Below, one piece after another: positions 1 through 10,097 of a stretch of DNA of 10,966 bases. Numbering within the stretch: the first letter of the stretch is position 1; each line of letters opens with the position of its first letter. A program made the translations under genes and the position numbers. The notes under the pieces are model-generated. The model was not told where the DNA came from. It did no database searches and saw only the letters and a list, made by a program, of their open reading frames with translations. The DNA comes from an archaeon (lineage in GTDB: Archaea > EX4484-52 > B79-G9). Location: contig JBDRKP010000048.1 in the NCBI GenBank assembly GCA_043813875.1, positions 1-10,966 on the forward strand, in the 5' to 3' direction.

Positions 1-294
1 AATAATAATAGTTATAATAATAATGTGGTGATAAGAGAGGATGAGAGGAATGAAATAGTGAGATGAAATATTTATATTGAAATGTTAAAAAATAAGCAAC
101 ATCTGGCTTACAATGGATGTGAAATTAATAGGAATCTAAATTGAAGCGCATAAATAGATTTAATATATAATCGATGTCTAATGCCTTATTTTTGTGGTTT
201 GTATGGTTTTGTGTTTTAAGGGGTTTTTGATATTTTTGAATAAGTGAGAATTTATGTAGAATTGGTGCCTAGAATAGGAATAATAGGAACAGGA

Positions 295-485
295 CTTCTA
301 GTGGAAGGGATTGTTTTTGTAGAAATCAGAGGCAATATGGTTTGGGTTGTGTTTTTTTAATATTTAACATGGTCTGTTGTTGCTCTTTTTGAGTTTTGCC
401 TGTTTGCTTTTTGTTTACTTTTTTTGTGGATTTGTTGTTAACGTGGGTTGCAGTGGAAGTGAGGGTGTCTGTGTTAATTGGAAAC
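295..485 (+). other. ORB-like motifs flanking a T-rich tract; possible replication origin
   Basis: CTTCTAGTGGAAGGG (295-309) and GTTGCAGTGGAAGTGAGGGTGT (447-468) resemble the ORB consensus GTTCCAGTGGAAAC..GGGG, in a long AT-rich non-coding region. Confidence 0.3.
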
Positions 486-525
486 CATGAAATCACAGAA
501 CTCGACATGCTAAGTTTTTTATTGA

Positions 526-1299
526 TTATATATCTTGTATGTTTGTTTTCAGGTTCGTTATCAGTTCGTCTATGGTTTCACATTTTGAGATTATTATGGG
601 TATGCCTTCTACTTTTGCTATCCTTTCTGCGAGCTTGTCCAGTTCTTTCAGGCCGTGAAATATTACTGCGCCTGGCTTTAAGTTTGTCACTTTTATGGCG
701 ATGAGAGGGGATCGGCCGCGCTCTACTTTCGTGAATACCAGGGCGCGTTCTGTTGTCATGCCGTATAGTTTTACAAGCTCTTTTGGCGAGAGTTCGATTA
801 TTGCTTTTATCGAGTCTATGATCGTGTAGCCGAATATGCTTTTTTTGCTGTCTTCCTGCCCTATGATTATCGTTCCGTTCACATATTTTGCGATGTCTTC
901 TAATGTGTGCGCTTTTGTTGTCTCTCGTATGTCTAATATCGCATCAGATAGTGTTTCTGTGGAGTATATGCTGTTGAATTCTCTTGAGATTATATTGCCT
1001 TTTGAGTCGTCGATTTTTAGGAAGGAGTTGACTATCTTTCTTATCATCGCGACTCCAGGGGATTTCCTTCTTCCTGATTCGTAGTCTGATATGACTGAGG
1101 GCATCAGGCCCATTTCTGTCGCGAGTTCGCGCTGGGAGATCTTGAAGATGTTGCGCCATTTCTGGATGGCGTCTCCGGGGTTTTGGGTGAGGACTATCTC
1201 TCCTGCTATTTTTTTGGCAAGCTTGTCTTTTTCGATGTCGTGCTCTTTGGCTGCCTGCTCTTTTTGGTCCTGCATGTTGTTTGTTATGGCAATCATCAT
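526..1299 (-). CDS. Archaeal Cro/C1-type HTH transcriptional regulator (COG1709-like); true start may be the Met at 1275
   Basis: IAGEIVLTQNPG..KWRNIFKISQRELA..MGLMPSVISDYESGRRKSPG HTH signature; C-terminal LYGMTTERALVFTKVERGRSPLIAIKV is typical of this archaeal family. Confidence 0.85.
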   Translation of the reverse strand: MMIAITNNMQDQKEQAAKEHDIEKDKLAKKIAGEIVLTQNPGDAIQKWRNIFKISQRELATEMGLMPSVISDYESGRRKSPGVAMIRKIVNSFLKIDDSKGNIISREFNSIYSTETLSDAILDIRETTKAHTLEDIAKYVNGTIIIGQEDSKKSIFGYTIIDSIKAIIELSPKELVKLYGMTTERALVFTKVERGRSPLIAIKVTNLKPGAVIFHGLKELDKLAERIAKVEGIPIIISKCETIDELITNLKTNIQDI

Positions 1300-1354
1300 T
1301 AAATAGGTTGTGGCTTTTTTGGATATATGTGTTCGATGGTGGTGAATGCGTTAG

Positions 1355-1362
1355 TTTATTAA
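1355..1362 (+). promoter_or_regulatory. Putative TATA box for the oxidoreductase (likely leaderless mRNA)
   Basis: TTTATTAA ends 22 nt before ATG 1385; no SD motif in between. Confidence 0.5.
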
Positions 1363-1384
1363 AATATTCTGTGATATTAACAAT

Positions 1385-2293
1385 ATGTATGACGTGATTA
1401 TAGTCGGGTCAGGTCCTGCAGGAATAGCGTGCGCGCTCCGATGCAAGGAGCTTAATGTCGAGCCTCTTGTGCTTGAGCAGGGAGTTTTGGCCAATACGCT
1501 TGCGGATTATCATCTCGGTAAAAAGATGTTTGGTGTTGTCGGTTTTTTCCAGGCGGATCCTCATGAGCTTATCGATTTCTATAGGAAGGATTTTAAGATG
1601 GCCAAGGTTGATGTGAGGGAGCATCATAAAGTGACGTCTATAAAGAAGAAGGCTGGGTTTTTTGAGGTCGCTGCCAACGATGAGGTGTTTAAGGCGAAGG
1701 CTGTTGTTGTCGCTGTCGGCGTGCAGGGCATCCCCCAGACAATAGGTGTTCCTGGCGAGGATAAGAAGCATGTTTATTATAAGCTAGAGGATCCTGCTAA
1801 ATATGCCGGCCGGAATGTCGTAGTTGTCGGTGGCGGTGATGTTGCTATTGAGGCGGCTATTGCTCTTTGTGAGGCAGGGGCGAATGTTGTTCTTTCTTAC
1901 AGGCGTCCTCTGTTTTTCCGTGTGAAGGAGCTTAATCTGAAGATGCTCGGTGAAAGCAAGGTGGATGTGAGGTTTTCGACTAATGTAACTCTAATCAAGA
2001 ACAAGAGCGTGATGCTAAGGCATCCTACCGATTCTCTTGAGGAGGTCAAGGCGGATGATGTGTTTATTTTTGTCGGCAATTTGAGGAATGTCGAGTTCTT
2101 CCGTGAGATTGGTCTTGATTTTGATGAGAAGGGCAATATCGTGTATGATGATGAGACGTTTGAGACGACTGTCAAGGGGCTTTTTGTTGCCGGCGATATA
2201 ACCAAGGATAAGTTCAAGCTCATCGTGCCTGCCATGTATCATGGTATGAAGGCGGCTTCTTATGTCCTTTCTTATAAGGTCAGAAATAAGTGA
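1385..2293 (+). CDS. FAD/NAD(P)-dependent oxidoreductase, thioredoxin-reductase fold, no CxxC (YpdA/FNR-like)
   Basis: DVIIVGSGPAG FAD motif, VVVVGGGDVAIE NAD(P) motif, TTVKGLFVAGD second FAD motif; the usual CxxC position reads HVYYKLEDP. Confidence 0.85.
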   Translation: MYDVIIVGSGPAGIACALRCKELNVEPLVLEQGVLANTLADYHLGKKMFGVVGFFQADPHELIDFYRKDFKMAKVDVREHHKVTSIKKKAGFFEVAANDEVFKAKAVVVAVGVQGIPQTIGVPGEDKKHVYYKLEDPAKYAGRNVVVVGGGDVAIEAAIALCEAGANVVLSYRRPLFFRVKELNLKMLGESKVDVRFSTNVTLIKNKSVMLRHPTDSLEEVKADDVFIFVGNLRNVEFFREIGLDFDEKGNIVYDDETFETTVKGLFVAGDITKDKFKLIVPAMYHGMKAASYVLSYKVRNK

Positions 2294-2660
2294 GTGTTAG
2301 CCGTTGGTTGTTGTCGAATCTGTCATTTGTGATGTGATTTATTCCTTCAGTGCTTATTTGGTATAATTCTATTTGTCTTTCAGAATCAGGGTCATTTTCA
2401 TATGTTTTACCTACAAGACCATTATTTTCTAATATTCGCAGTGCAATTTGTAAACTTAGTGGGTTTTGAGACTCACGATATGAATCATTATTTTCTATCA
2501 GGTAATTATGTATAGCACTATTATTTGCTTTAATTTGCATAGGATTTTCATCGGTCCCTTCTCCTATATAGAGATATTTTAGGATGGCAGGACATAGAGA
2601 GCAATTATTGAGGCCCACACGGGTTGCTAATCCATTTAGTAATAATTCGGTGTTATCCAT
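2280..2660 (-). CDS. Hypothetical protein, possible winged-helix (PadR/MarR-like) domain
   Basis: 126-aa ORF in otherwise empty space; LQIALRILENNGLV...R...YQISTEG resembles a wHTH recognition helix and wing; AT-rich. Confidence 0.55.
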   Translation of the reverse strand: MDNTELLLNGLATRVGLNNCSLCPAILKYLYIGEGTDENPMQIKANNSAIHNYLIENNDSYRESQNPLSLQIALRILENNGLVGKTYENDPDSERQIELYQISTEGINHITNDRFDNNQRLTLTYF

Positions 2661-2752
2661 AGTGCTACTTTATGCTAGTAATTATTAAATGTCTTTTCCT
2701 ATTAGATTGTGTTTTGGAATTGTGTTATTTTGCTATTGTTTTTTCCGTAAGG

Positions 2753-2760
2753 TTTATAAT
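2753..2760 (+). promoter_or_regulatory. Putative TATA box of the RHH-PRT-queDEC-folE2 operon
   Basis: TTTATAAT preceded by CGTAAGG (BRE-like); implies a TSS near 2780-2785. Confidence 0.5.
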
Positions 2761-2856
2761 ATTATGGGGGTATTCTTCAGGTATTATCATGAGATTATCT
2801 TCGTGTTTTTGTGAGGGTAATGGATGATAGTAATGATAGTTTCAGGGTGATATGAA

Positions 2857-3030
2857 ATGCCAAAAGTCTGTGTCGAGATTCCGCAGGATATTGTTGATGA
2901 TGTGCGCGAGCATGTGGGGGATGATAAGAAGTTTGTTAATTTTTCGGATGCTGTCAGGACTGCTTTGCGCAAGATGCTTGACCAGCTCGATGAGGTTGAC
3001 CAGAGGCATGGAAGGCGAAAGGGGGAATAA
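2857..3030 (+). CDS. Ribbon-helix-helix (CopG/MetJ-type) protein, 57 aa, not in the ORF track
   Basis: Manual translation MPKVCVEIPQDIVDDVREHVGDDKKFVNFSDAVRTALRKMLDQLDEVDQRHGRRKGE; alternating N-terminal beta strand and S-D-A-V-R-x-A-L helix B; SD GGTGA at 2846-2850; stop is 3 nt before the next ATG. Confidence 0.88.
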   Translation: MPKVCVEIPQDIVDDVREHVGDDKKFVNFSDAVRTALRKMLDQLDEVDQRHGRRKGE

Positions 3031-3033
3031 TAT

Positions 3034-3498
3034 ATGATTTCTGTATCGTGGGATGAGTTTTTTGAGCTCTCACAAAAACTTGCAAAAAAAGTGCAGAAGA
3101 AGCGCTTTGATTCTGTTGTCTGTATCAACAGGGGCGGGCTTGTTGTCGGGAGGATGCTTTCTGATGCTTTGGGACTTCCTTTAGGTGTCGTCAGCGCGAA
3201 GGCTTATGATGTCGGAAGGGCTGAGCAGCGCAAGGACGTGGTCGTTGATCGGAAGATATCTATTGTTGGCGATACGGGAAAGACGGTTTTGCTTGTGGAT
3301 GATATCGCGGATAATGGGGCCACTTTTTTTGCTGTCAAATCTTTTCTTGAGCATGATCTAGGGCTAACTGTTAACACGGCGACACTTTTTAGGAAGAAGG
3401 GTTGCTTATTTGATGTTGATTTTTTTGTGTCTGATGGCGTCGGCGACTGGATCGTCATGCCTTACGAGGCCAATGAGTTCAAGGGGAGTGGTAAGTGA
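3034..3498 (+). CDS. Type I phosphoribosyltransferase (xanthine/guanine PRT-like, COG2236)
   Basis: INRGG loop, PRPP-binding motif VLLVDDIADNGAT, C-terminal WIVMPYE. Confidence 0.88.
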   Translation: MISVSWDEFFELSQKLAKKVQKKRFDSVVCINRGGLVVGRMLSDALGLPLGVVSAKAYDVGRAEQRKDVVVDRKISIVGDTGKTVLLVDDIADNGATFFAVKSFLEHDLGLTVNTATLFRKKGCLFDVDFFVSDGVGDWIVMPYEANEFKGSGK

Positions 3499-3860
3499 TG
3501 AAAGAGATGAGATTGTGCCGCGAGTTTTATTTTGATGCTGCGCATCGGCTGCCGGATTATGACGGAAAGTGCGCGAACCTGCACGGGCATACTTACAAGC
3601 TTGAGGTTGTGGTTTCTGGCAATGTGAAGAAGAAGAGCGGGATGGTTGTTGATTTTTGCGATATCAAGAAGGCTGTCAATGAGGCGGTTATCGAGAGACT
3701 TGATCATGCGAATCTGAATGATATTTTTTCAAATCCTACTGCTGAGAATATGGCGGTGTGGATCTTTGATGAGATCAGGAAGAAGTTGCCCGAGCTTTTC
3801 AGTGTGAAGCTCTGGGAGGGGCAGCATTCATGGGTGGAGTATCATGGTGAAGGTCGTTGA
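3498..3860 (+). CDS. queD: 6-carboxy-5,6,7,8-tetrahydropterin synthase
   Basis: FDAAHRL, CxxxHGH (CANLHGHTY), GMVVDF, LDH, NPTAEN; ATG overlaps the PRT stop (TGATG). Confidence 0.95.
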   Translation: MKEMRLCREFYFDAAHRLPDYDGKCANLHGHTYKLEVVVSGNVKKKSGMVVDFCDIKKAVNEAVIERLDHANLNDIFSNPTAENMAVWIFDEIRKKLPELFSVKLWEGQHSWVEYHGEGR

Positions 3861-4503
3861 GGTTTTTGGTTCCATCCAGGGCGAAGGGATTCTTACAGGC
3901 GTCCCTACTACATTTGTGAGGCTTCTGGGCTGCAATCTGTCGTGCCGGTGGTGCGATACGAAGTATGCGAAGGAGGGGGATGGGAAAGAGATGAGCCCTC
4001 AGGAGATTTTGGGCAAGGTTAAGGGCGAGCATGTGTGCATAACTGGCGGCGAGCCGCTCATGCAGGATGTTTATGAGCTGTGCAGGCTGCTTTTTGATAA
4101 CGGGAAGAAGGTGACTGTCGAGACTAATTGCACTGTCTATGACAAGAGGCTTTCTGAGTATGTTTTTCTTTATTCTGTGTCGCCGAAGCTTTCAGCCAGC
4201 GGCGAGCGATATGATGAGCGCGTACTTCGGAAGTATCTAAATCTAGATAATGTCCAGATCAAGTTTGTTGTGTGCGATGATGATGATTTTCTTGAGGCCA
4301 GGGGGATTCTTGAAAAGTACCGGAAATCTGTAAGAGATAAGGTCATTCTCCAGCCGGATGGGATGTGTCCTCTAAATGAGTATCTTAAGAGGCTTTCGTG
4401 GCTTGTGGGGAAGGTGCTAACAGATGATGTGATGCTAAAGAATAATGTGCGCGTGCTGCCGCAATTGCATAAGGTCATCTGGGGAAATAAGCGGGGTGTG
4501 TGA
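3844..4503 (+). CDS. queE: 7-carboxy-7-deazaguanine synthase (radical SAM)
   Basis: [22 protein letters not shown] (CxxxCxxC), ITGGEP, VETN, SVSPK, PQLHK. Confidence 0.95.
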
Positions 4504-5165
4504 TGATGATGAAATGTGTCGTGCTTCTTTCCGGCGGGCTTGATTCTACCACCTGTCTTGCTATCGCGAAGAACGAGGGTTATGAGGTGTATGCGCTGAG
4601 TTTTGATTACGGGCAGAGGCATCGTGTCGAGGTGGATGCAGCGAGGGCTGTCGCAGAGAAGGTGGGTGTCGCAGAGCACAAGGTGCTTTCTATTGATTTG
4701 AGGCAGATCGGGGGTTCTGCGCTTACTGATGATATCGAGGTTCCTAAGGGGCGCTCTATTGATGATGAGATACCTGTGACTTATGTGCCTTTCAGGAATG
4801 CCATCCTTCTTTCGTTTGCGACTGCGTGGGCGGAGGTTGTCGGTGCCCGCGCTGTTTTTGCGGGGATGAATGCTATTGATTATTCCGGGTATCCGGATTG
4901 CCGGGGGGAGTTTCTTTCTGCTTTCGAGAAGGCGATGAATCTTGGGACGAAGAAGGGCGGTTTTCGGATTGTTGCGCCGCTTCTTAAGCTGACCAAGAAG
5001 GAGATTGTCCTGAGGGCGATCCATGAGGGGGCGCCGATCGAGCTTACGCATAGTTGCTATTCGCCTGTCGACGGGATGGCGTGCGGTGAGTGCGATTCGT
5101 GCCAGCTGCGGCTGAAGGGATTCAGGGAGGCGGGAATAAAGGATCCGGTGAGGTATCATGATTGA
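4503..5165 (+). CDS. queC: 7-cyano-7-deazaguanine (preQ0) synthase
   Basis: SGGLDS PP-loop, YGQRH, TYVPFRN, YPDCR, Zn ligands SCY..CGECDSC; start is one of the ATGs at 4503/4506/4509. Confidence 0.96.
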
Positions 5166-5925
5166 TGTGCAGAGATCGGGTGATGAGCGAAATGTGGAGC
5201 TTGATAAGGTAGGGGTGAGGGATGTCGGTATCCCGCTGAAGATAAAGGATATGTCGCGGAAGTTCCAGCATGTCTCTAGCAAGGTCGATTGTTTTGTCAA
5301 TCTGCCGCATGATTTTCGGGGGACGCATATGTCTCGTTTTATCGAGGTGCTGAATAAGCACAGGGCGCGCGTGTTTAATTCGGATGTGGTGCGCGGGGTC
5401 CTTTCTGAATTGAAGGAGAAGCTTGATGCGGATTCGGCGCATATTGTCGTCAGGTTCCCTTATTTTGTCGAGAAGACTTCGCCTGTTTCTTCGAAGAAAA
5501 GTGTGATGGAATATGAGTGCGCATTTTTCGGGGATTTTTGTGAGAGTTTCTCGTTCATGATCGAGGTGAAGGTTCCTGTGGCGACGCTTTGCCCGTGCTC
5601 GAAGGAGATATCAGATTTCGGTGCGCATAACCAGAGGGGGATTGTGACTGTGCTTGCGCGATGCTCAAAGTTCGTGTGGATCGAGGAGATCATCAGGATG
5701 GCTGAAGAATCGGCTAGCAGTGAGGTGTTTTCTTTGCTCAAGAGGTCTGATGAGAAGTTCGTTACCGAGAGGATGTATGATAAGCCGATGTTTGTCGAGG
5801 ATGTGGTGAGGGAGGTAGTTCTTCGGCTCCGCAGGGATAAAAGGGTTTCGGGGTTCCGGGTGGAGTGTGAGAATTTCGAGTCGATTCATGCGCATAATGC
5901 GTATGCGTTGGTTGATAGGCTGTGA
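5158..5925 (+). CDS. folE2: GTP cyclohydrolase I type IB (FolE2/MptA family)
   Basis: [55 protein letters not shown]-like GGTGAGGT upstream. Confidence 0.93.
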
Positions 5926-5990
5926 GTTCCGGTTCTTTGGAAGCGATATCCTTTTTAAGGTTTGTGTCTACTTATTTAATTGATTTTAGT

Positions 5991-6222
5991 GCAGGGGTCG
6001 CCCAGCTGGTCAATCTTATAGAAGCATGGCTTGCTATGCTTTTTTTGTGACTAGAGGCGCCGGACTCAAGAATACGTCAATGGCAACTTTTTGAGTGCTG
6101 AGCGCGCGTTGCGCGTGATGATTTTAAGAAATCCGGTCTCGTAGGAGTTCAAGGGTTCGAATGCGGCTGATGCATTTGTTTTTGTGTCGCCTGAATTGCC
6201 GAAAATCCCTTCCCCTGCACCA
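5991..6222 (+). tRNA. tRNA-Leu(CAA) with three introns. Exons 5991-6013, 6055-6070, 6131-6161, 6206-6222; introns 6014-6054 (21/22), 6071-6130 (37/38), 6162-6205 (59/60); CCA encoded
   Basis: The spliced 87-nt product folds fully: acceptor GCAGGGG/CCCCTGC + A73 + CCA; D stem GCC/GGC; anticodon stem CCGGA/TCCGG with loop CT-CAA-GA; long variable arm CTC-GTAG-GAG; T stem AAGGG/CCCTT with loop TTCGAAT. BHB-type motifs at all three junctions. Confidence 0.93.
6088..6121 (+). ncRNA. Candidate intron-encoded box C/D guide (guide 6088-6096, box D 6098-6101, box C 6115-6121) for 2'-O-methylation of C34 of the host tRNA-Leu(CAA)
   Basis: TTTTTGAGT pairs with ACTCAAGAA (6064-6072); CTGA and GTGATGA are joined by a GC-rich hairpin; the 5th nt upstream of box D (G6093) pairs with C34 (6067). 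Confidence 0.65.
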
Positions 6223-6355
6223 CAACTTTCAGAAAGGTTGATCATCAGAGCGACCATAAAGCTTCGCTTCAACCTTCTAAAAGGTTGATCATTAGGTGTG
6301 TTTCGCTTTCGCTCAAGCACACTATTATTCTATATGGATAGCTTCGCTTTAGGTC
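6223..6355. repeat. Structured repeat element: two 23-bp palindromic direct repeats, nested inverted repeats and GCTTCGC motifs
   Basis: CAACTTTCAGAAAGGTTGATCAT (6223-6245) vs CAACCTTCTAAAAGGTTGATCAT (6270-6292), 20/23 identical; GACC(A)TAAAGC 6252-6262 pairs with GCTTTAGGTC 6346-6355. Confidence 0.7.
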
Positions 6356-6528
6356 ACTTATTTGCTTTGTTCATACACATTGTTTTTTTGTTTTTTTGAG
6401 ATTATGGATGTCTGGGTTTTTTGCTTTTTGAAAGTATCTGGTCATGTGACACAGTTTGCTTTCCGTGATTCTTTGGACTCTTTCCTATCTGTTGAAATTA
6501 TATATATTATCGCGGATGTAGTAATATC

Positions 6529-6921
6529 ATGGATCTTTTTCAGAGATTGCGGAACCTGTCTGTTGGTGAGACATCTTACAAGCACAGGAAGAAGGATAAT
6601 GTGCATCTTTTCGGCGGGGTTGCGGGTATTGTTTCTATCATATCGGGGATTGTCATGTATGTCATGGTATCGCCTCTTGCTGTGGCTGAGCATATCAAGG
6701 TGCTCGGGCTTGTGTGGGTTGTTTTCGGGCTGCTTGCTTTTTATGCGCTGTATGTCTTTGAGTACGTGGATCGGAGGAGAGGCGGCAGGATTCTTGCGGC
6801 TCTAGGGGTTATTGGTATGCTTGTTGGTGTCGGTTTTTTTCTCGGGGCTTTGATGATGGCGTTTTCAGGGATTCTTGCGATTAGATATTCTGTGCGCAGG
6901 ATTGGGCAGAAGATGTTTTAG
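6529..6921 (+). CDS. Hypothetical membrane protein (3-4 TM helices)
   Basis: ATG-started 130-aa ORF with hydrophobic segments and basic loops; G/T-rich wobble positions like neighbouring + genes. Confidence 0.7.
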   Translation: MDLFQRLRNLSVGETSYKHRKKDNVHLFGGVAGIVSIISGIVMYVMVSPLAVAEHIKVLGLVWVVFGLLAFYALYVFEYVDRRRGGRILAALGVIGMLVGVGFFLGALMMAFSGILAIRYSVRRIGQKMF

Positions 6922-6968
6922 GTGCTGTGTGAGATATCTATTTAGATTTGCGTACCTTTCTTGTTTGT

Positions 6969-7409
6969 ATGAGATGTGTCGTGTGCGGGGTCGGAAACAG
7001 GTTGCGCGGTGATGATGCTGTCGGGCCGATTGTGGTCGACAGGTTGCGGGAGAAGTATGTTGATAGGGAGGATATGCTTTTTCTTGACTGCGGGGGGGCG
7101 CCGGAGAATTTCCTTTCGAAGATATGTGATTTTCACGCGGAAAAGGTGATTATTGTTGATGCTGTGACTCTTTTAGGGAGGCCGGGTGCTGTCGAGATGC
7201 TTGATGTTGATAGGATCAGGGGGATCCTATATTCTACACATCAGTTGCCTTTGTCGCTCTTTATCGGGTATCTGCAGAAAAACAGGGGTTGTGATGTTGT
7301 TTTTGTCGGCGTGCAGCCGAAGGATACAGGATTCGGAGAGAAGCTGAGTGATGAGTGCAGGATTGCGATTGGTGAGGCGGTCGGGGTTGTTTTGAAGGCT
7401 ATTTTGTAG
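6969..7409 (+). CDS. hycI: Hydrogenase maturation endopeptidase (HycI type)
   Basis: GVGNRLRGDDAVG, GGAPENF, IIVDA, STHQLPL, GVQP motifs; ATG at 6969 preferred over TTG at 6948. Confidence 0.88.
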   Translation: MRCVVCGVGNRLRGDDAVGPIVVDRLREKYVDREDMLFLDCGGAPENFLSKICDFHAEKVIIVDAVTLLGRPGAVEMLDVDRIRGILYSTHQLPLSLFIGYLQKNRGCDVVFVGVQPKDTGFGEKLSDECRIAIGEAVGVVLKAIL

Positions 7410-7488
7410 AATCAGTCTTGTTATTAATGGCGTTAACTGTAATATCTGATAATATCAGTTATTAAATTTATTTTTGCATATTTTGTGC

Positions 7489-8700
7489 ATGGATGTATCA
7501 ACTGTTTTTTTCCTTGTGGGCAGCATAATATTCATCGGGTTTTTAGGTACTTTGTTTTTCCAGCGAACGAAGGTTCCTGATGTGCTTTTGCTTATGGTTC
7601 TTGGAATGTTCATCGGCCCTGTCTTTCATATTATCGAGCCGACATCGCTTGAGAGCCTGTCGACGTATTTTGCGGCGCTTGCGTTGATCATACTTCTTTT
7701 CGAGGGTGGGCTCGGGCTGAATATATTCAAGGTCATCAGGGAAATCCCGAAAGCGACTGGTTTTACTGTGCTGATTTTCCTGTTCACGATCCTGATTACG
7801 GGCGCCCTTATGTCTGTGTTTTTTCAATGGAGTGTCTATCAGGGGATTCTTCTCGGGGCGGTTATAGGCGGCTCCAGCTCTGCGATTGTCATCGGCATAT
7901 TGAATAAGATCAAGACTGCTGATAGCGTGAAGACTTTGCTCACTTTAGAGTCTACTCTTACGGATGTGCTGTGCATTGTCGTTTCGATATCTATGATCCA
8001 GGTCATCCTTTCGAGCTCATTAAATTTTGCTGTCATCGGGAACAGTCTGCTTGGGGCGTTTTCAATAGCTGCCGTGGTTGCTGTTGCTTTCGGGATGGTG
8101 TGGCTTCAGTTCCTTAAGAATTTCGGGGGGTTTGAGTACGGCTATCTTCTGACTCTTGCTGTCACATTCCTGTTGTATGCGTTTGTCGAATCGATAAAGG
8201 CAAATGGCGCTGTGGCGGCGCTTGTTTTCGGGCTTATGCTTGCCAATGCGAAGGATATAGCGCTCATGTTGCGCCTCAAGGGCGATTATACTGTCAATCG
8301 CGATATCATCCGGTTCCATAAGGAGATATCTTTTTTTGTCAGGACATTTTTCTTTGTCTTTATCGGGATTGCCATTGATATCAAATCGATATTGGACGTC
8401 ACGTTTGTCGTCATGGGAGTTTCCGTGGTCGTCGGTCTTGTTGGAGCGAGGCGTCTTGGAGTGTATATGTATGGCATGTTTTCTGAGAATGTGTCCAAGT
8501 TTTCGCCTGTTCTAAATGCAATGATGCCGCGGGGGCTTGCAGCGGCTGTTCTTGCCTCTATCCCGATGTCAAGCGGTATTGAAATAAGCGGGTTTGTGGA
8601 GATTGTATTTTTTGTGATCATCGCGACGAATCTCATCACTACAGTGTCGGTTTATCGCTCGCAGGCGAGTGTTCCTGAGAAGAGCGAAAAGAGCAAGTGA
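7489..8700 (+). CDS. nhaP: NhaP-type (CPA1) cation:proton antiporter
   Basis: About 12 TM helices; VPDVLLLM, ALIILLFEGGL, LESTLTDV, MMPRGLAAAVLA motifs; TATA-like TTATTAAA at 7459-7466 supports ATG 7489. Confidence 0.85.
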   Translation: MDVSTVFFLVGSIIFIGFLGTLFFQRTKVPDVLLLMVLGMFIGPVFHIIEPTSLESLSTYFAALALIILLFEGGLGLNIFKVIREIPKATGFTVLIFLFTILITGALMSVFFQWSVYQGILLGAVIGGSSSAIVIGILNKIKTADSVKTLLTLESTLTDVLCIVVSISMIQVILSSSLNFAVIGNSLLGAFSIAAVVAVAFGMVWLQFLKNFGGFEYGYLLTLAVTFLLYAFVESIKANGAVAALVFGLMLANAKDIALMLRLKGDYTVNRDIIRFHKEISFFVRTFFFVFIGIAIDIKSILDVTFVVMGVSVVVGLVGARRLGVYMYGMFSENVSKFSPVLNAMMPRGLAAAVLASIPMSSGIEISGFVEIVFFVIIATNLITTVSVYRSQASVPEKSEKSK

Positions 8701-8749
8701 TGATATATCTTTCTCTACCTTAAAAAGATGTGAATGTAATTAATGGATT

Positions 8750-9085
8750 ATGGATATCTTGTCTGGATTCGGCGGGCTGGGGCTTGGGTTTGTCGGCGCG
8801 GTCCTCATCATTCTGATTTCGGCGCTGCCGCTTTATTTTGCCGTGAAGCTTCTTGGCGGTGAGGCAACTATTTTCAAGGTCCTTATGGTGAATCTTATTG
8901 CCGCAATTGTCGGCGCTGTTTTCAAGCTGCCTTTGATTGGTTTTCTGTTGCTTTTGTTTATCTATAAAGAAGTGTTCAAACTCTCCTGGTTTGGTGCTTT
9001 TGCGGCATGGATTTTGCAGTTCGTGGTTGCGGCTGTGCTGGTCGCGGGGGCGGTTATTCTTGGTATCGGGCTTATCGCGCTTTAG
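8750..9085 (+). CDS. Hypothetical small membrane protein
   Basis: 111-aa, almost entirely hydrophobic ORF filling the gap between nhaP and the next gene. Confidence 0.72.
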   Translation: MDILSGFGGLGLGFVGAVLIILISALPLYFAVKLLGGEATIFKVLMVNLIAAIVGAVFKLPLIGFLLLLFIYKEVFKLSWFGAFAAWILQFVVAAVLVAGAVILGIGLIAL

Positions 9086-9152
9086 CTTTTGATGCCTGAA
9101 GAATGTGGATGTGCTTATTTCTTTTGGAGTTTTGCTGGAAGAAATGAGTTAA

Positions 9153-9713
9153 TTATTCGATGTGGTCCAGTTCGTCTTTTAAGCGCTCCAAGGTCTTGTG
9201 GAGGTTGGATACGTCGCTTGAGAGGCCGAGGTCTATTCCTTCGTCCGGGATATCGAGGCCGTCCGGGACGCTGAGCTTCTCTTCTACGTCTATTAGTTTT
9301 GTGTCGAGTTCGTTGAGATGGATTTCAAGTCTTTCAATGGCTTCTGCTTTCAGTTTTTCTGCTTTTCCCAGAAGCGATATGGTGTCTGCAATTGATTTGA
9401 TGTCGATTTTTGCGTCTGTCAACTCTTTTGCAACTTCCGTGTGCTCGTCAATCTTGACGAAGAGCTCTGTCTCTACCTGGGTTTTTTGTTTGTGGGCAGG
9501 CTCTTTTTTTTGCGGCTCCAGCGGCTCAATGATGTTGTTTAAAGGAGGCTTTTCTTTTGGAGCGTTGACTGGCGTGGGCATGATCTTTTCTGTGTCCTGT
9601 GGCGCATTTTTCGGTATGTTGCTGTTCTGGTAGTCAGTATTGCCTGTAGTTCCGAGCCCTACGACTCCTCTTAGTCTGTTTATGTCACTTTCGGTCAATC
9701 TTTCAGAAGGCAT
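9153..9713 (-). CDS. Hypothetical protein with a Pro/Lys-rich linker and C-terminal coiled coil
   Basis: 186-aa ORF; LFVKID followed by heptad-like acidic helices; A/C-rich wobble positions like the other minus-strand gene; TTTATAAA about 25 nt upstream. Confidence 0.75.
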   Translation of the reverse strand: MPSERLTESDINRLRGVVGLGTTGNTDYQNSNIPKNAPQDTEKIMPTPVNAPKEKPPLNNIIEPLEPQKKEPAHKQKTQVETELFVKIDEHTEVAKELTDAKIDIKSIADTISLLGKAEKLKAEAIERLEIHLNELDTKLIDVEEKLSVPDGLDIPDEGIDLGLSSDVSNLHKTLERLKDELDHIE

Positions 9714-9979
9714 TTTAAATTATTGGCGTTTAATGTTTATAAACGTTTGATATGAGTTTGTGGATATTTCTGGTTTATGGTTGGAATTGTTTCTTGGAAT
9801 ATGCATGAATATAGTAAAAGTCATAACTATTTAGACTACATGACTTTTCCATATAGTTAACGCCTCTTGGTTTATTGGTTATGTTTGTCCAGTTAGTAAC
9901 GGCGTGAACTATAATTAAAATGTGCGTTGTGGTCATGTTGTCCTATAAAAGGTTTTCGATGATATGAAAAAATCATGAG

Positions 9980-10097
9980 TGCCCTCACCGGGAATTTCGA
10001 ACATCCACAAAAAGCGAAAGCAAGAATTGTGTATTGTATTTCGAACCCGGGCCACAGCCTCCGCAGGGCCGTATCTTATCCACTAGACTATGAGGGC
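9980..10097 (-). tRNA. tRNA-Arg(GCG) with a 46-nt T-loop intron (9994-10039, position 59/60); CCA not encoded
   Basis: Minus strand: acceptor GCCCTCA/TGAGGGC, D stem GTCT/AGAT with A20, anticodon stem CGGCC/GGCTG with loop CT-GCG-GA, T stem CCGGG/CCCGG; BHB central helix TTCG/CGAA with bulges AA|A and AT|T. Confidence 0.93.

Follow-up and report, generated by a model that had tools for sequence, protein, structure and literature searches.

Introduction

Canonical archaeal box C/D guide RNAs carry two box pairs, C/D and C'/D', with guide spacers of about 12 nucleotides (nt); the consensus of box C is RUGAUGA and that of box D is CUGA. The closest described relative of the element treated here is the guide in the euryarchaeal intron of precursor tRNA-Trp (Haloferax volcanii, and sR50 in Pyrococcus). 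It lies in the 37/38 intron of the very tRNA that it modifies, targets C34, and pairs across the exon-intron junction in a duplex that cannot coexist with the splicing motif (PMC7994747, PMC4090602, PMC11408192). A 2014 review calls the tRNA-Trp intron "a unique example" (PMC4090602), and a 2024 review names it alone as such a guide (PMC11408192). Here we analyze a candidate of the same kind in a different tRNA. The stretch under study, a contig of 10,966 nt (JBDRKP010000048.1 of assembly GCA_043813875.1, hereafter the window), comes from an archaeon of GTDB lineage EX4484-52; B79-G9, and carries a tRNA-Leu(CAA) gene whose 37/38 intron contains an antisense segment, a box D-like and a box C-like motif. 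Judging from sequence and its comparison among relatives, we consider it probable, at roughly 0.78, that this intron holds a lone D'/C'-type box C/D unit guiding 2'-O-methylation of C34 (Cm34) on its own pre-tRNA-Leu(CAA).

The tRNA-Trp intron guide is a full small RNA (sRNA) with boxes C, D', C' and D and two guides, for C34 and U39, whereas the Leu(CAA) unit has one box pair, one guide and a different host tRNA, and Rfam returned no match at E values up to 5. Free-standing C/D sRNA guides address the same target nucleotide in the same tRNAs (PMC7994747), but they are separate genes acting in trans, whereas the Leu(CAA) guide sits inside the intron of its own target; for Haloferax tRNA-Met, the substrate is the intron-containing precursor (PMC5372725). 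The order of guide, D', loop and C' is that of the canonical C'/D' motif (K-loop), and genomes titled Aenigmatarchaeota insert 5 nt there (e.g. UUGA-UUAAA-GAUGA). Unlike that motif, however, most lineages studied here insert a stem of 3-8 base pairs (bp), which makes a full kink-turn, and there is no partner C/D pair in the RNA. In this respect the unit resembles half-mer C/D RNAs, laboratory constructs in which one kink-turn and one guide assemble with the core proteins and bind the target RNA, as seen in a crystal structure (PMC6239191). A minimal, functional single-domain snoRNA has also been described in Drosophila; it is eukaryotic and has the order C, guide, D (PMC7994747). In contrast to both, the Leu(CAA) unit occurs naturally, in archaea, as part of a precursor tRNA.

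Two protein enzymes act on the same nucleotide of the same tRNA, namely eukaryotic Trm4/NSUN2, which makes 5-methylcytidine at position 34 of tRNA-Leu(CAA) and requires the intron (PMC4090602, PMC11408192), and bacterial TrmL, which makes Cm34 in tRNA-Leu(CmAA) (PMC5372725). Both are protein-only systems; the eukaryotic mark is a base methylation and its intron is structural, not an antisense guide. In the full-text literature, with subscription journals outside its coverage, we found no description of a guide in an intron of tRNA-Leu or tRNA-Met. The Leu (and Met) intron guides described below thus most likely extend to other tRNAs what the reviews give for tRNA-Trp alone.

Results

A single candidate guide unit in the 37/38 intron

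Within the intron, the segment UUUUUGAGU is followed by G6097, CUGA (6098-6101), a GC hairpin (6102-6116) and GAUGA (6117-6121), which reads GUGAUGA from position 6115 on (Table 1). The antisense segment lies directly upstream of box D' and forms 9 bp, one of them a wobble (U6090.G6070), in antiparallel orientation with positions 6064-6072. G6093, the fifth base 5' of C6098, is thereby placed opposite C6067, the wobble base C34; we refer to this register as D+5. All of these elements, from the guide, CUGA, GC hairpin and GUGAUGA to the 9 bp with one G-U and the G6093-C34 pair, had been pointed out in an earlier note on this DNA and were recovered in the places given there.

The 60-nt intron thus contains a single box pair, with D before C. 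No second box pair that would complete a C/D plus C'/D' arrangement was found in this intron or in those of relatives, some of which measure just 31-33 nt. A CUGAUGC...CUGA arrangement in the T-loop intron of the same gene was rejected as the second pair because its flanking stem lies on the wrong side for a kink-turn.

Conservation within the phylum

In the genome set searched, phylum, class and order of the source coincide and comprise the identical 42 species; the source assembly is archaeal, 1.64 Mb in size and 91.5% complete, and the genomes of its relatives span 0.5-2.2 Mb. The lineage is a small-genome one of DPANN type. An exon-only pattern, GGCGNNGGACTCAA, matched 38 places in 34 of the 42 genomes; with two places that are not tRNA and one cut by a contig end set aside, the Leu(CAA) gene is represented in 33 genomes. 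Its 37/38 intron contains UUGAGU-N-NUGA-insert-RAUGA in 17 of them, a decayed copy in one (G022, with UUGAGU-U-AUAG and the 3' box gone) and an unrelated sequence in three, while 12 genomes have no 37/38 intron at all. The 17 carriers include all six gene-bearing genomes of the window's genus together with families f2, f3, f5, f7 and f8, so that six of the eight families of the phylum are represented; one of the carriers, G021, has the unit in an intron of 108 nt. UUGAGU and the 1-nt spacer are invariant in all 17 units, and the full unit pattern occurs in 16 of the 42 genomes and in none of the reversed controls. The earlier note had proposed a comparison of orthologous introns, and in these the guide and the D+5 spacing are indeed kept, as are both boxes with their GA, in the genus, in these six families and in other archaeal phyla (see below).

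A free-standing guide in canonical order (GATGA-N2-9-TTGAGTNNTGA) was matched in 3 of the 42 genomes against 2 control matches, i.e. none was detected by this pattern. Guide copies in D-before-C order outside tRNA genes were likewise rejected: those inspected lie in coding-like or non-conserved DNA, with the exception of G021, where the copy is inside the Leu(CAA) intron.

Two decayed copies keep UUGAGU after loss of the boxes. In G022 (locus L065), AUAG replaces AUGA, and the intron at G121:C12:10540-10581, from the second phylum sampled below, has neither NUGA nor NNUGA. Because of these copies, we think that the unit can disappear while the intron stays, as they suggest.

Pairing of the putative guide with its target

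For the comparison of guide and target, 52 of 53 reference sequences were aligned; L149 was dropped as its 3' end is doubtful, and the set was limited from the start to introns in which no more than 40 nt precede the guide. G37 is paired in 50 of the 52 rows. Pairing continues across the splice junction, with intron base 1 paired in 32 of 34 informative rows (A-U 21, G-C 4, U-A 4, U.G 2, G.U 1), and in 10 rows both sides of this pair are altered. Intron bases 2 and 3 are paired in 15/31 and 12/27 rows, respectively. Sliding the partner by one column lowers the fraction of paired cells from 94.7% to 46-50%. In a separate permutation test, the extension of the guide beyond A36 averages 2.35 bp with the cognate partner and 1.72 bp with permuted partners, a value that none of 2000 permutations reached. 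Since the duplex spans the exon-intron junction, the unspliced precursor would be the substrate.

The C34 partner stands at D+5 in 17/17 units of the phylum. A sample free of ascertainment bias came from a second phylum, the one that holds L136, where 201 genomes were scanned with GGACTCAAG-N25-55-ATCC, an exon-only pattern that avoids a forced 1-nt spacer. The sample classified by eye from these matches comprises 25 introns in which a kink-turn unit adjoins an anti-anticodon segment, besides one UUGAGU without boxes (G121) and one intronless tRNA. In all 25 units the C34 partner is again at D+5, while neighboring positions have drifted: four units have A rather than U at D+2, two have UCGA and one has AAGA as the D' box, and the 3' box reads UGUGA (six units), GGUGA (one) or AGUGA (one).

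Distribution beyond the phylum

A scan of one genome per species across 185,579 species returned 66 loci, of which 11 carry bacterial and 55 archaeal titles. The 11 bacterial-title loci have no tRNA context, and roughly 14 matches are expected by chance. In contrast, 53 of the 55 archaeal-title loci parse as a Leu(CAA) anticodon arm with a matching 3' stem strand; the other two are L120, mis-parsed with a 3' box UAUGA, and L127, whose 3' half is unrecognizable. By sequence comparison, 15 of the 53 arms come from the phylum itself and 38 from outside. Going by title, the latter belong to Aenigmatarchaeota (15), Woesearchaeota (9), unnamed archaea (6), "Methanosarcinales" (5), Nanoarchaeota/Nanoarchaeia (2) and Undinarchaeota (1). 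The unit is thus widespread in small-genome archaea.

The five "uncultured Methanosarcinales archaeon" loci (L143, L149, L168, L173, L175) were not counted as evidence beyond small-genome archaea, as their genomes measure 0.8-1.6 Mb and McrA was found in none of the five. These titles are probably wrong.

A separate segment builds the splicing helix

In archaea, the bulge-helix-bulge motif normally arises through pairing of the 37/38 intron with the anticodon loop (PMC4090602), and UUGAGU might simply be this usual splicing pairing, with incidental UGA...GA motifs nearby. A different segment, however, at the 3' end of the intron, provides that helix with two 3-nt bulges in the right places. 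Among 55 introns it makes 4/4 pairs with C32-A35 in 30, 3/4 in 16 and 2/4 in 9. In the window, UAAG stands opposite CUCA with 3/4 pairs, a relaxed bulge-helix-bulge. UUGAGU, in turn, lies 20-60 nt from the 3' splice site, and the stem between the two boxes covaries, as does the 4b-4n pair described below. Because the bulge-helix-bulge helix is built by this separate 3' segment, the putative guide is, as far as pairing patterns tell, not the splicing helix, and we consider an identity of the two very unlikely.

Kink-turn register and architecture

The architecture of the box region was derived from the same 55 introns, 36 of which have an insert of at least 9 nt between the boxes and 19 an insert of 5-8 nt. 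The D' box is NUGA throughout, with N being A in 25, C in 15 and U in 15 introns. A flush stem of at least 3 bp, which starts directly after NUGA and ends directly before RAUGA, is present in 31 of the 36 introns with the longer insert, with 17 different closing triplets, while a stem separated from RAUGA by a three-base bulge, the arrangement that a canonical box C would call for, is seen in 1/36. On average, the flush stem has 3.16 bp compared to 0.63 bp in shuffled inserts. The position after the GA pairs is U.U in 33/55 and A-U in 14/55 introns. In addition, the first base of NUGA finds a pairing partner in the second base 3' of NNUGA (4b-4n) in 35/55 introns (U-A 17, A-U 15, G-C 3); in the two UCGA variants the facing base is G. 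Sequence and covariation together give the layout NUGA, flush stem, NNU bulge and GA, which is that of a kink-turn with tandem sheared G.A pairs. The inserts of 5-8 nt, found mainly under Aenigmatarchaeota titles, look like the K-loop of an ordinary C'/D' motif.

This layout revises one claim of the earlier note, that of a perfect box C, GUGAUGA. The stem is flush to NNUGA and thus includes G6115 and U6116; the corresponding place in relatives reads GCGAUGA, AAUGA, UGUGA, GGUGA or AGUGA. Since covariation sets the register of flush stem, NNU bulge and GA, the perfect GUGAUGA is a local coincidence, with the 3' box aligning two bases further right. In that register it reads AUGAUUU (6118-6124) and agrees with five of the seven consensus positions.

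The note had also left two options for the D-before-C order, a lone D'/C' unit or a permuted sRNA that becomes C, guide, D upon circularization of the excised intron. The first fits the architecture. Circularization is unnecessary because D', at its 3' side, is already connected through the hairpin with the 5' side of C'. The permuted reading was dropped also in view of the intron lengths of 31-126 nt, with which the C-to-D distance around the circle would vary widely.

Chance expectation

By itself, the motif is frequent. The loose pattern NTGA-hairpin-RATGA is matched 112 times in the genome, and when any unit of this type is sought together with a 9-bp partner no more than 130 nt away, there are 8 matches, close to the 5 in the reversed genome; only the tRNA-Leu(CAA) match among these self-targeting ones sits in a tRNA. 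The case for the unit thus rests on the tRNA context and on conservation. Together with the decayed copies in G022 and G121, these frequencies could speak for a chance resemblance or for a decaying relic without present function. Yet among 1,000,000 shuffles of the intron, 315 had a 7-bp guide and NUGA in the C34 register, and only 6 of those also the RAUGA unit. Moreover, the unit is conserved across several phyla with compensatory changes. Already contradicted by the comparative data, chance or relic status deserves hardly any credence.

Units in tRNA-Trp and tRNA-Met, and the protein machinery

The same design recurs in two further tRNAs. A unit in the same register and with its own matching guide is found in tRNA-Trp introns of 18/42 genomes of the phylum (control 0; 10 of 12 inspected loci in tRNA context) and in tRNA-Met introns of 25/42 genomes (control 0; 11 of 11). 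The window's own genome has tRNA-Trp(CCA) at C42:33189-33269 on the minus strand (L188), where the 37/38 intron reads CCUGGAGC-U-CUGA-hairpin-GAUGA and C34 is again at D+5. In relatives (loci L198-L209), the 37/38 intron of elongator tRNA-Met(CAU) contains UUAUGAGU-N-NUGA-hairpin-RAUGA. No Met unit was found in the window's genome, where the sole tRNA-Met called by ARAGORN (contig C76) has a 41-nt intron without it. Family f4 lacks the Leu(CAA) intron, yet 9 of its 10 genomes have the Met unit. The design is thus common to three tRNAs of the phylum.

In Pyrococcus, C/D sRNAs are directed at position 34 of four tRNAs, among them Leu(CAA), Met and Trp, and C34 of Leu(CAA) is a predicted C/D target there (PMC7994747). 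What the earlier note had stated for Pyrococcus, a free-standing sRNA for C34 of Leu(CAA) and an intronic guide for Trp alone, agrees with that source.

The genome encodes the proteins that such a guide would need, as the earlier note had suggested to confirm: fibrillarin and Nop5 are close together on contig C23 and L7Ae is on C7. One splicing endonuclease gene is present, on C67. Across the phylum, fibrillarin scores above the cut-off in 36/42 genomes and in 10/10 high-quality ones; this agrees with the proposed guide, but because it is nearly universal, the fibrillarin profile cannot separate lineages with and without the unit.

A strict pattern for two-sited C/D sRNAs had one match in this genome, C63:9670 on the plus strand (reversed control 0), with a D' box AUGA. 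The first guide of this candidate sRNA contains AGGAGGUGA, which may be complementary to the 3' end of 16S rRNA.

Discussion

Proposed mechanism

From the observed anatomy, conservation, covariation and protein genes, we infer the following course of protein binding, methylation and splicing. The 37/38 intron of pre-tRNA-Leu(CAA) would carry a single C'/D'-type kink-turn unit with an antisense guide of 8-10 nt just upstream. In the unspliced precursor, the guide would pair with A31-G37 and, beyond the junction, with one to three bases at the start of the intron. L7Ae would bind the kink-turn formed by NUGA, the flush stem-loop, the NNU bulge and GA; Nop5 and fibrillarin would then assemble, and fibrillarin would 2'-O-methylate the base paired at D'+5, which is C34, to give Cm34. 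Methylation of the precursor would come first, followed by refolding and splicing. This order is expected because C32-A35 is needed for the guide duplex as well as for the bulge-helix-bulge helix, which makes the two mutually exclusive.

Points that weigh against a guide, and a non-guiding kink-turn

Several observations weigh against a methylation guide in this intron. There is one kink-turn only, compared with two in canonical archaeal guides, and a study of a Methanocaldococcus sRNA reportedly found that efficient methylation needed both. With usually 8 bp among relatives (range 6-10), the duplex of guide and target is short. In the window's genus, 4b.4n is a U.C mismatch, and in the window's splicing helix it is A6126 that faces C34. 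The minimum-energy fold of the arm (-25 kcal/mol, z -1.43) contains neither the guide duplex nor the kink-turn. Furthermore, in the pattern search of the 42 genomes, no substitute free-standing guide was detected for the 12 with an intronless Leu(CAA) gene, where Cm34 is either dispensable or made another way. The comparisons have limits as well: the cross-phylum pattern demanded UUGAGU, the spacer and RAUGA, so its matches cannot test those features; the GGACTCAAG matches are mostly chance, with a reversed control about equally frequent, and were classified by eye; and the shuffle statistics overstate the support as related sequences are not independent. Finally, all sequences are from uncultured assemblies.

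Some of these points would suit a unit that does not guide at all, i.e. a kink-turn bound by L7Ae or another protein that serves as a folding aid or as a timer, keeping the anticodon loop paired and thereby delaying the splicing motif. Such a role would go along with one kink-turn and no second box pair, with the competition of guide duplex and splicing helix for C32-A35, with the 3' box overlapping the splicing helix in 8/55 introns, and with a minimum-energy fold in which the box region pairs with the 5' end of the intron. It has, however, no need for an exact C34 partner at D+5, which is kept in 17/17 and 25/25 units while neighboring positions drift, nor would it be expected in precisely those three C34 tRNAs which are methylated through C/D guides in other organisms. 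We therefore regard a purely structural kink-turn as unlikely, and favor a guide for Cm34.

Implications

If the intron indeed guides Cm34, the tRNA-Trp intron is no longer the sole tRNA intron with its own modification guide, and the retention of 37/38 introns by tRNA-Leu(CAA) and tRNA-Met across large, little-studied archaeal groups has a selective basis. Natural single-kink-turn guides, in introns as short as 31-33 nt in some cases, would bear on a long-standing question, namely whether one box pair suffices for methylation by fibrillarin and on how the Nop5 dimer assembles on such an RNA. They would also offer a compact case of competing RNA folds, guide duplex and splicing motif, which could order modification before splicing.

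A wider picture is tentative, and we hold it to be rather doubtful in full: DPANN-type archaea might methylate C34 in each of the three tRNAs that require Cm34 (Leu-CAA, Met-CAU and Trp-CCA) by natural "half-mer" single-kink-turn guides in the 37/38 introns of these tRNAs, which would act on the precursor, with exclusive folds through which methylation gates splicing. Such units could then be minimal, perhaps ancestral to the two-sited free-standing C/D sRNAs.

The host gene and its surroundings

The tRNA-Leu(CAA) gene has three introns (Table 1). The A at both ends of the 60-nt intron makes a placement at 37/38 and at 38/39 equally possible. With all three introns removed by coordinates, ARAGORN recognizes the product as tRNA-Leu(caa) of 87 nt with a normal cloverleaf, while the raw DNA of the locus gave no call by ARAGORN or by Rfam (for the latter, at the gathering score as well as at E values up to 5). 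The exon frame is confirmed by L014, an intronless homologue from the sister genus. The D-loop intron is common to relatives in the genus, the T-loop intron is found in some only.

Table 1. Features of the tRNA-Leu(CAA) gene and of the candidate guide unit in its 37/38 intron (window coordinates)
Feature	Position	Strand	Remarks
tRNA-Leu(CAA) gene, encoded CCA	5991..6222	+	exons 5991-6013, 6055-6070, 6131-6162, 6207-6222
D-loop intron, 41 nt	6014..6054	+	edges uncertain by 1-2 nt; from intronless homologue and in silico splicing
Anticodon-loop (37/38) intron, 60 nt	6071..6130	+	from sequence reading, relatives and in silico splicing
T-loop intron, 44 nt, position 60/61 or 59/60	6163..6206	+	from intronless homologue and in silico splicing
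Target strand: A31-G37 (6064-6070, ACUCAAG) and intron bases 1-2	6064..6072	+	C34 = 6067, predicted 2'-O-methylation site
Putative guide UUUUUGAGU	6088..6096	+	U6096 at D+2 pairs with A31; G6093 at D+5 pairs with C34
Box D' CUGA	6098..6101	+	proposed sheared pairs G6100.A6121 and A6101.G6120
C-stem hairpin of the kink-turn	6102..6116	+	6102-6107 with 6111-6116; G6102.U6116 wobble; loop 6108-6110
Box C' in the register used	6117..6124	+	bulge G6117 A6118 U6119; G6120.A6101; A6121.G6100; U6122.U6099; U6123 and C6098 mismatched
3' half of the splicing motif	6125..6131	+	UAAG 6125-6128 opposite C32-A35; bulge A6129 A6130 / A6131 holds the 3' splice site

In the whole genome, ARAGORN counts 16 tRNAs and the Rfam tRNA model 26. 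Since these are the only ones counted, many tRNA genes of this genome probably are multi-intron and hence unannotated. Multi-intron tRNA genes of this kind escape tRNA finders, and the guide unit can serve as a practical landmark for their annotation. Another intron of the same genome, the T-loop intron of tRNA-Leu(CAG) at L035 (contig C54, minus strand), reads GCGGC-GGAUGA-AU-CUGA-A-GCUGC, with box C-like and box D-like motifs 2 nt apart and enclosed by a terminal stem. This could form a very small kink-turn hairpin or be no more than the splicing helix.

Directly upstream of the tRNA gene (3844-5925), the window encodes a radical S-adenosylmethionine protein (QueE-like), QueC and a FolE2-type GTP cyclohydrolase, a set that belongs to the preQ0 pathway, which feeds archaeosine in tRNA. 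That a tRNA-modification operon adjoins a tRNA gene with its own modification guide may be a coincidence. On the plus strand of positions 1-10000, the GC skew is +0.17 to +0.35 and the AT skew -0.11 to -0.35 throughout, and the majority of the long open reading frames of the window are on the plus strand.

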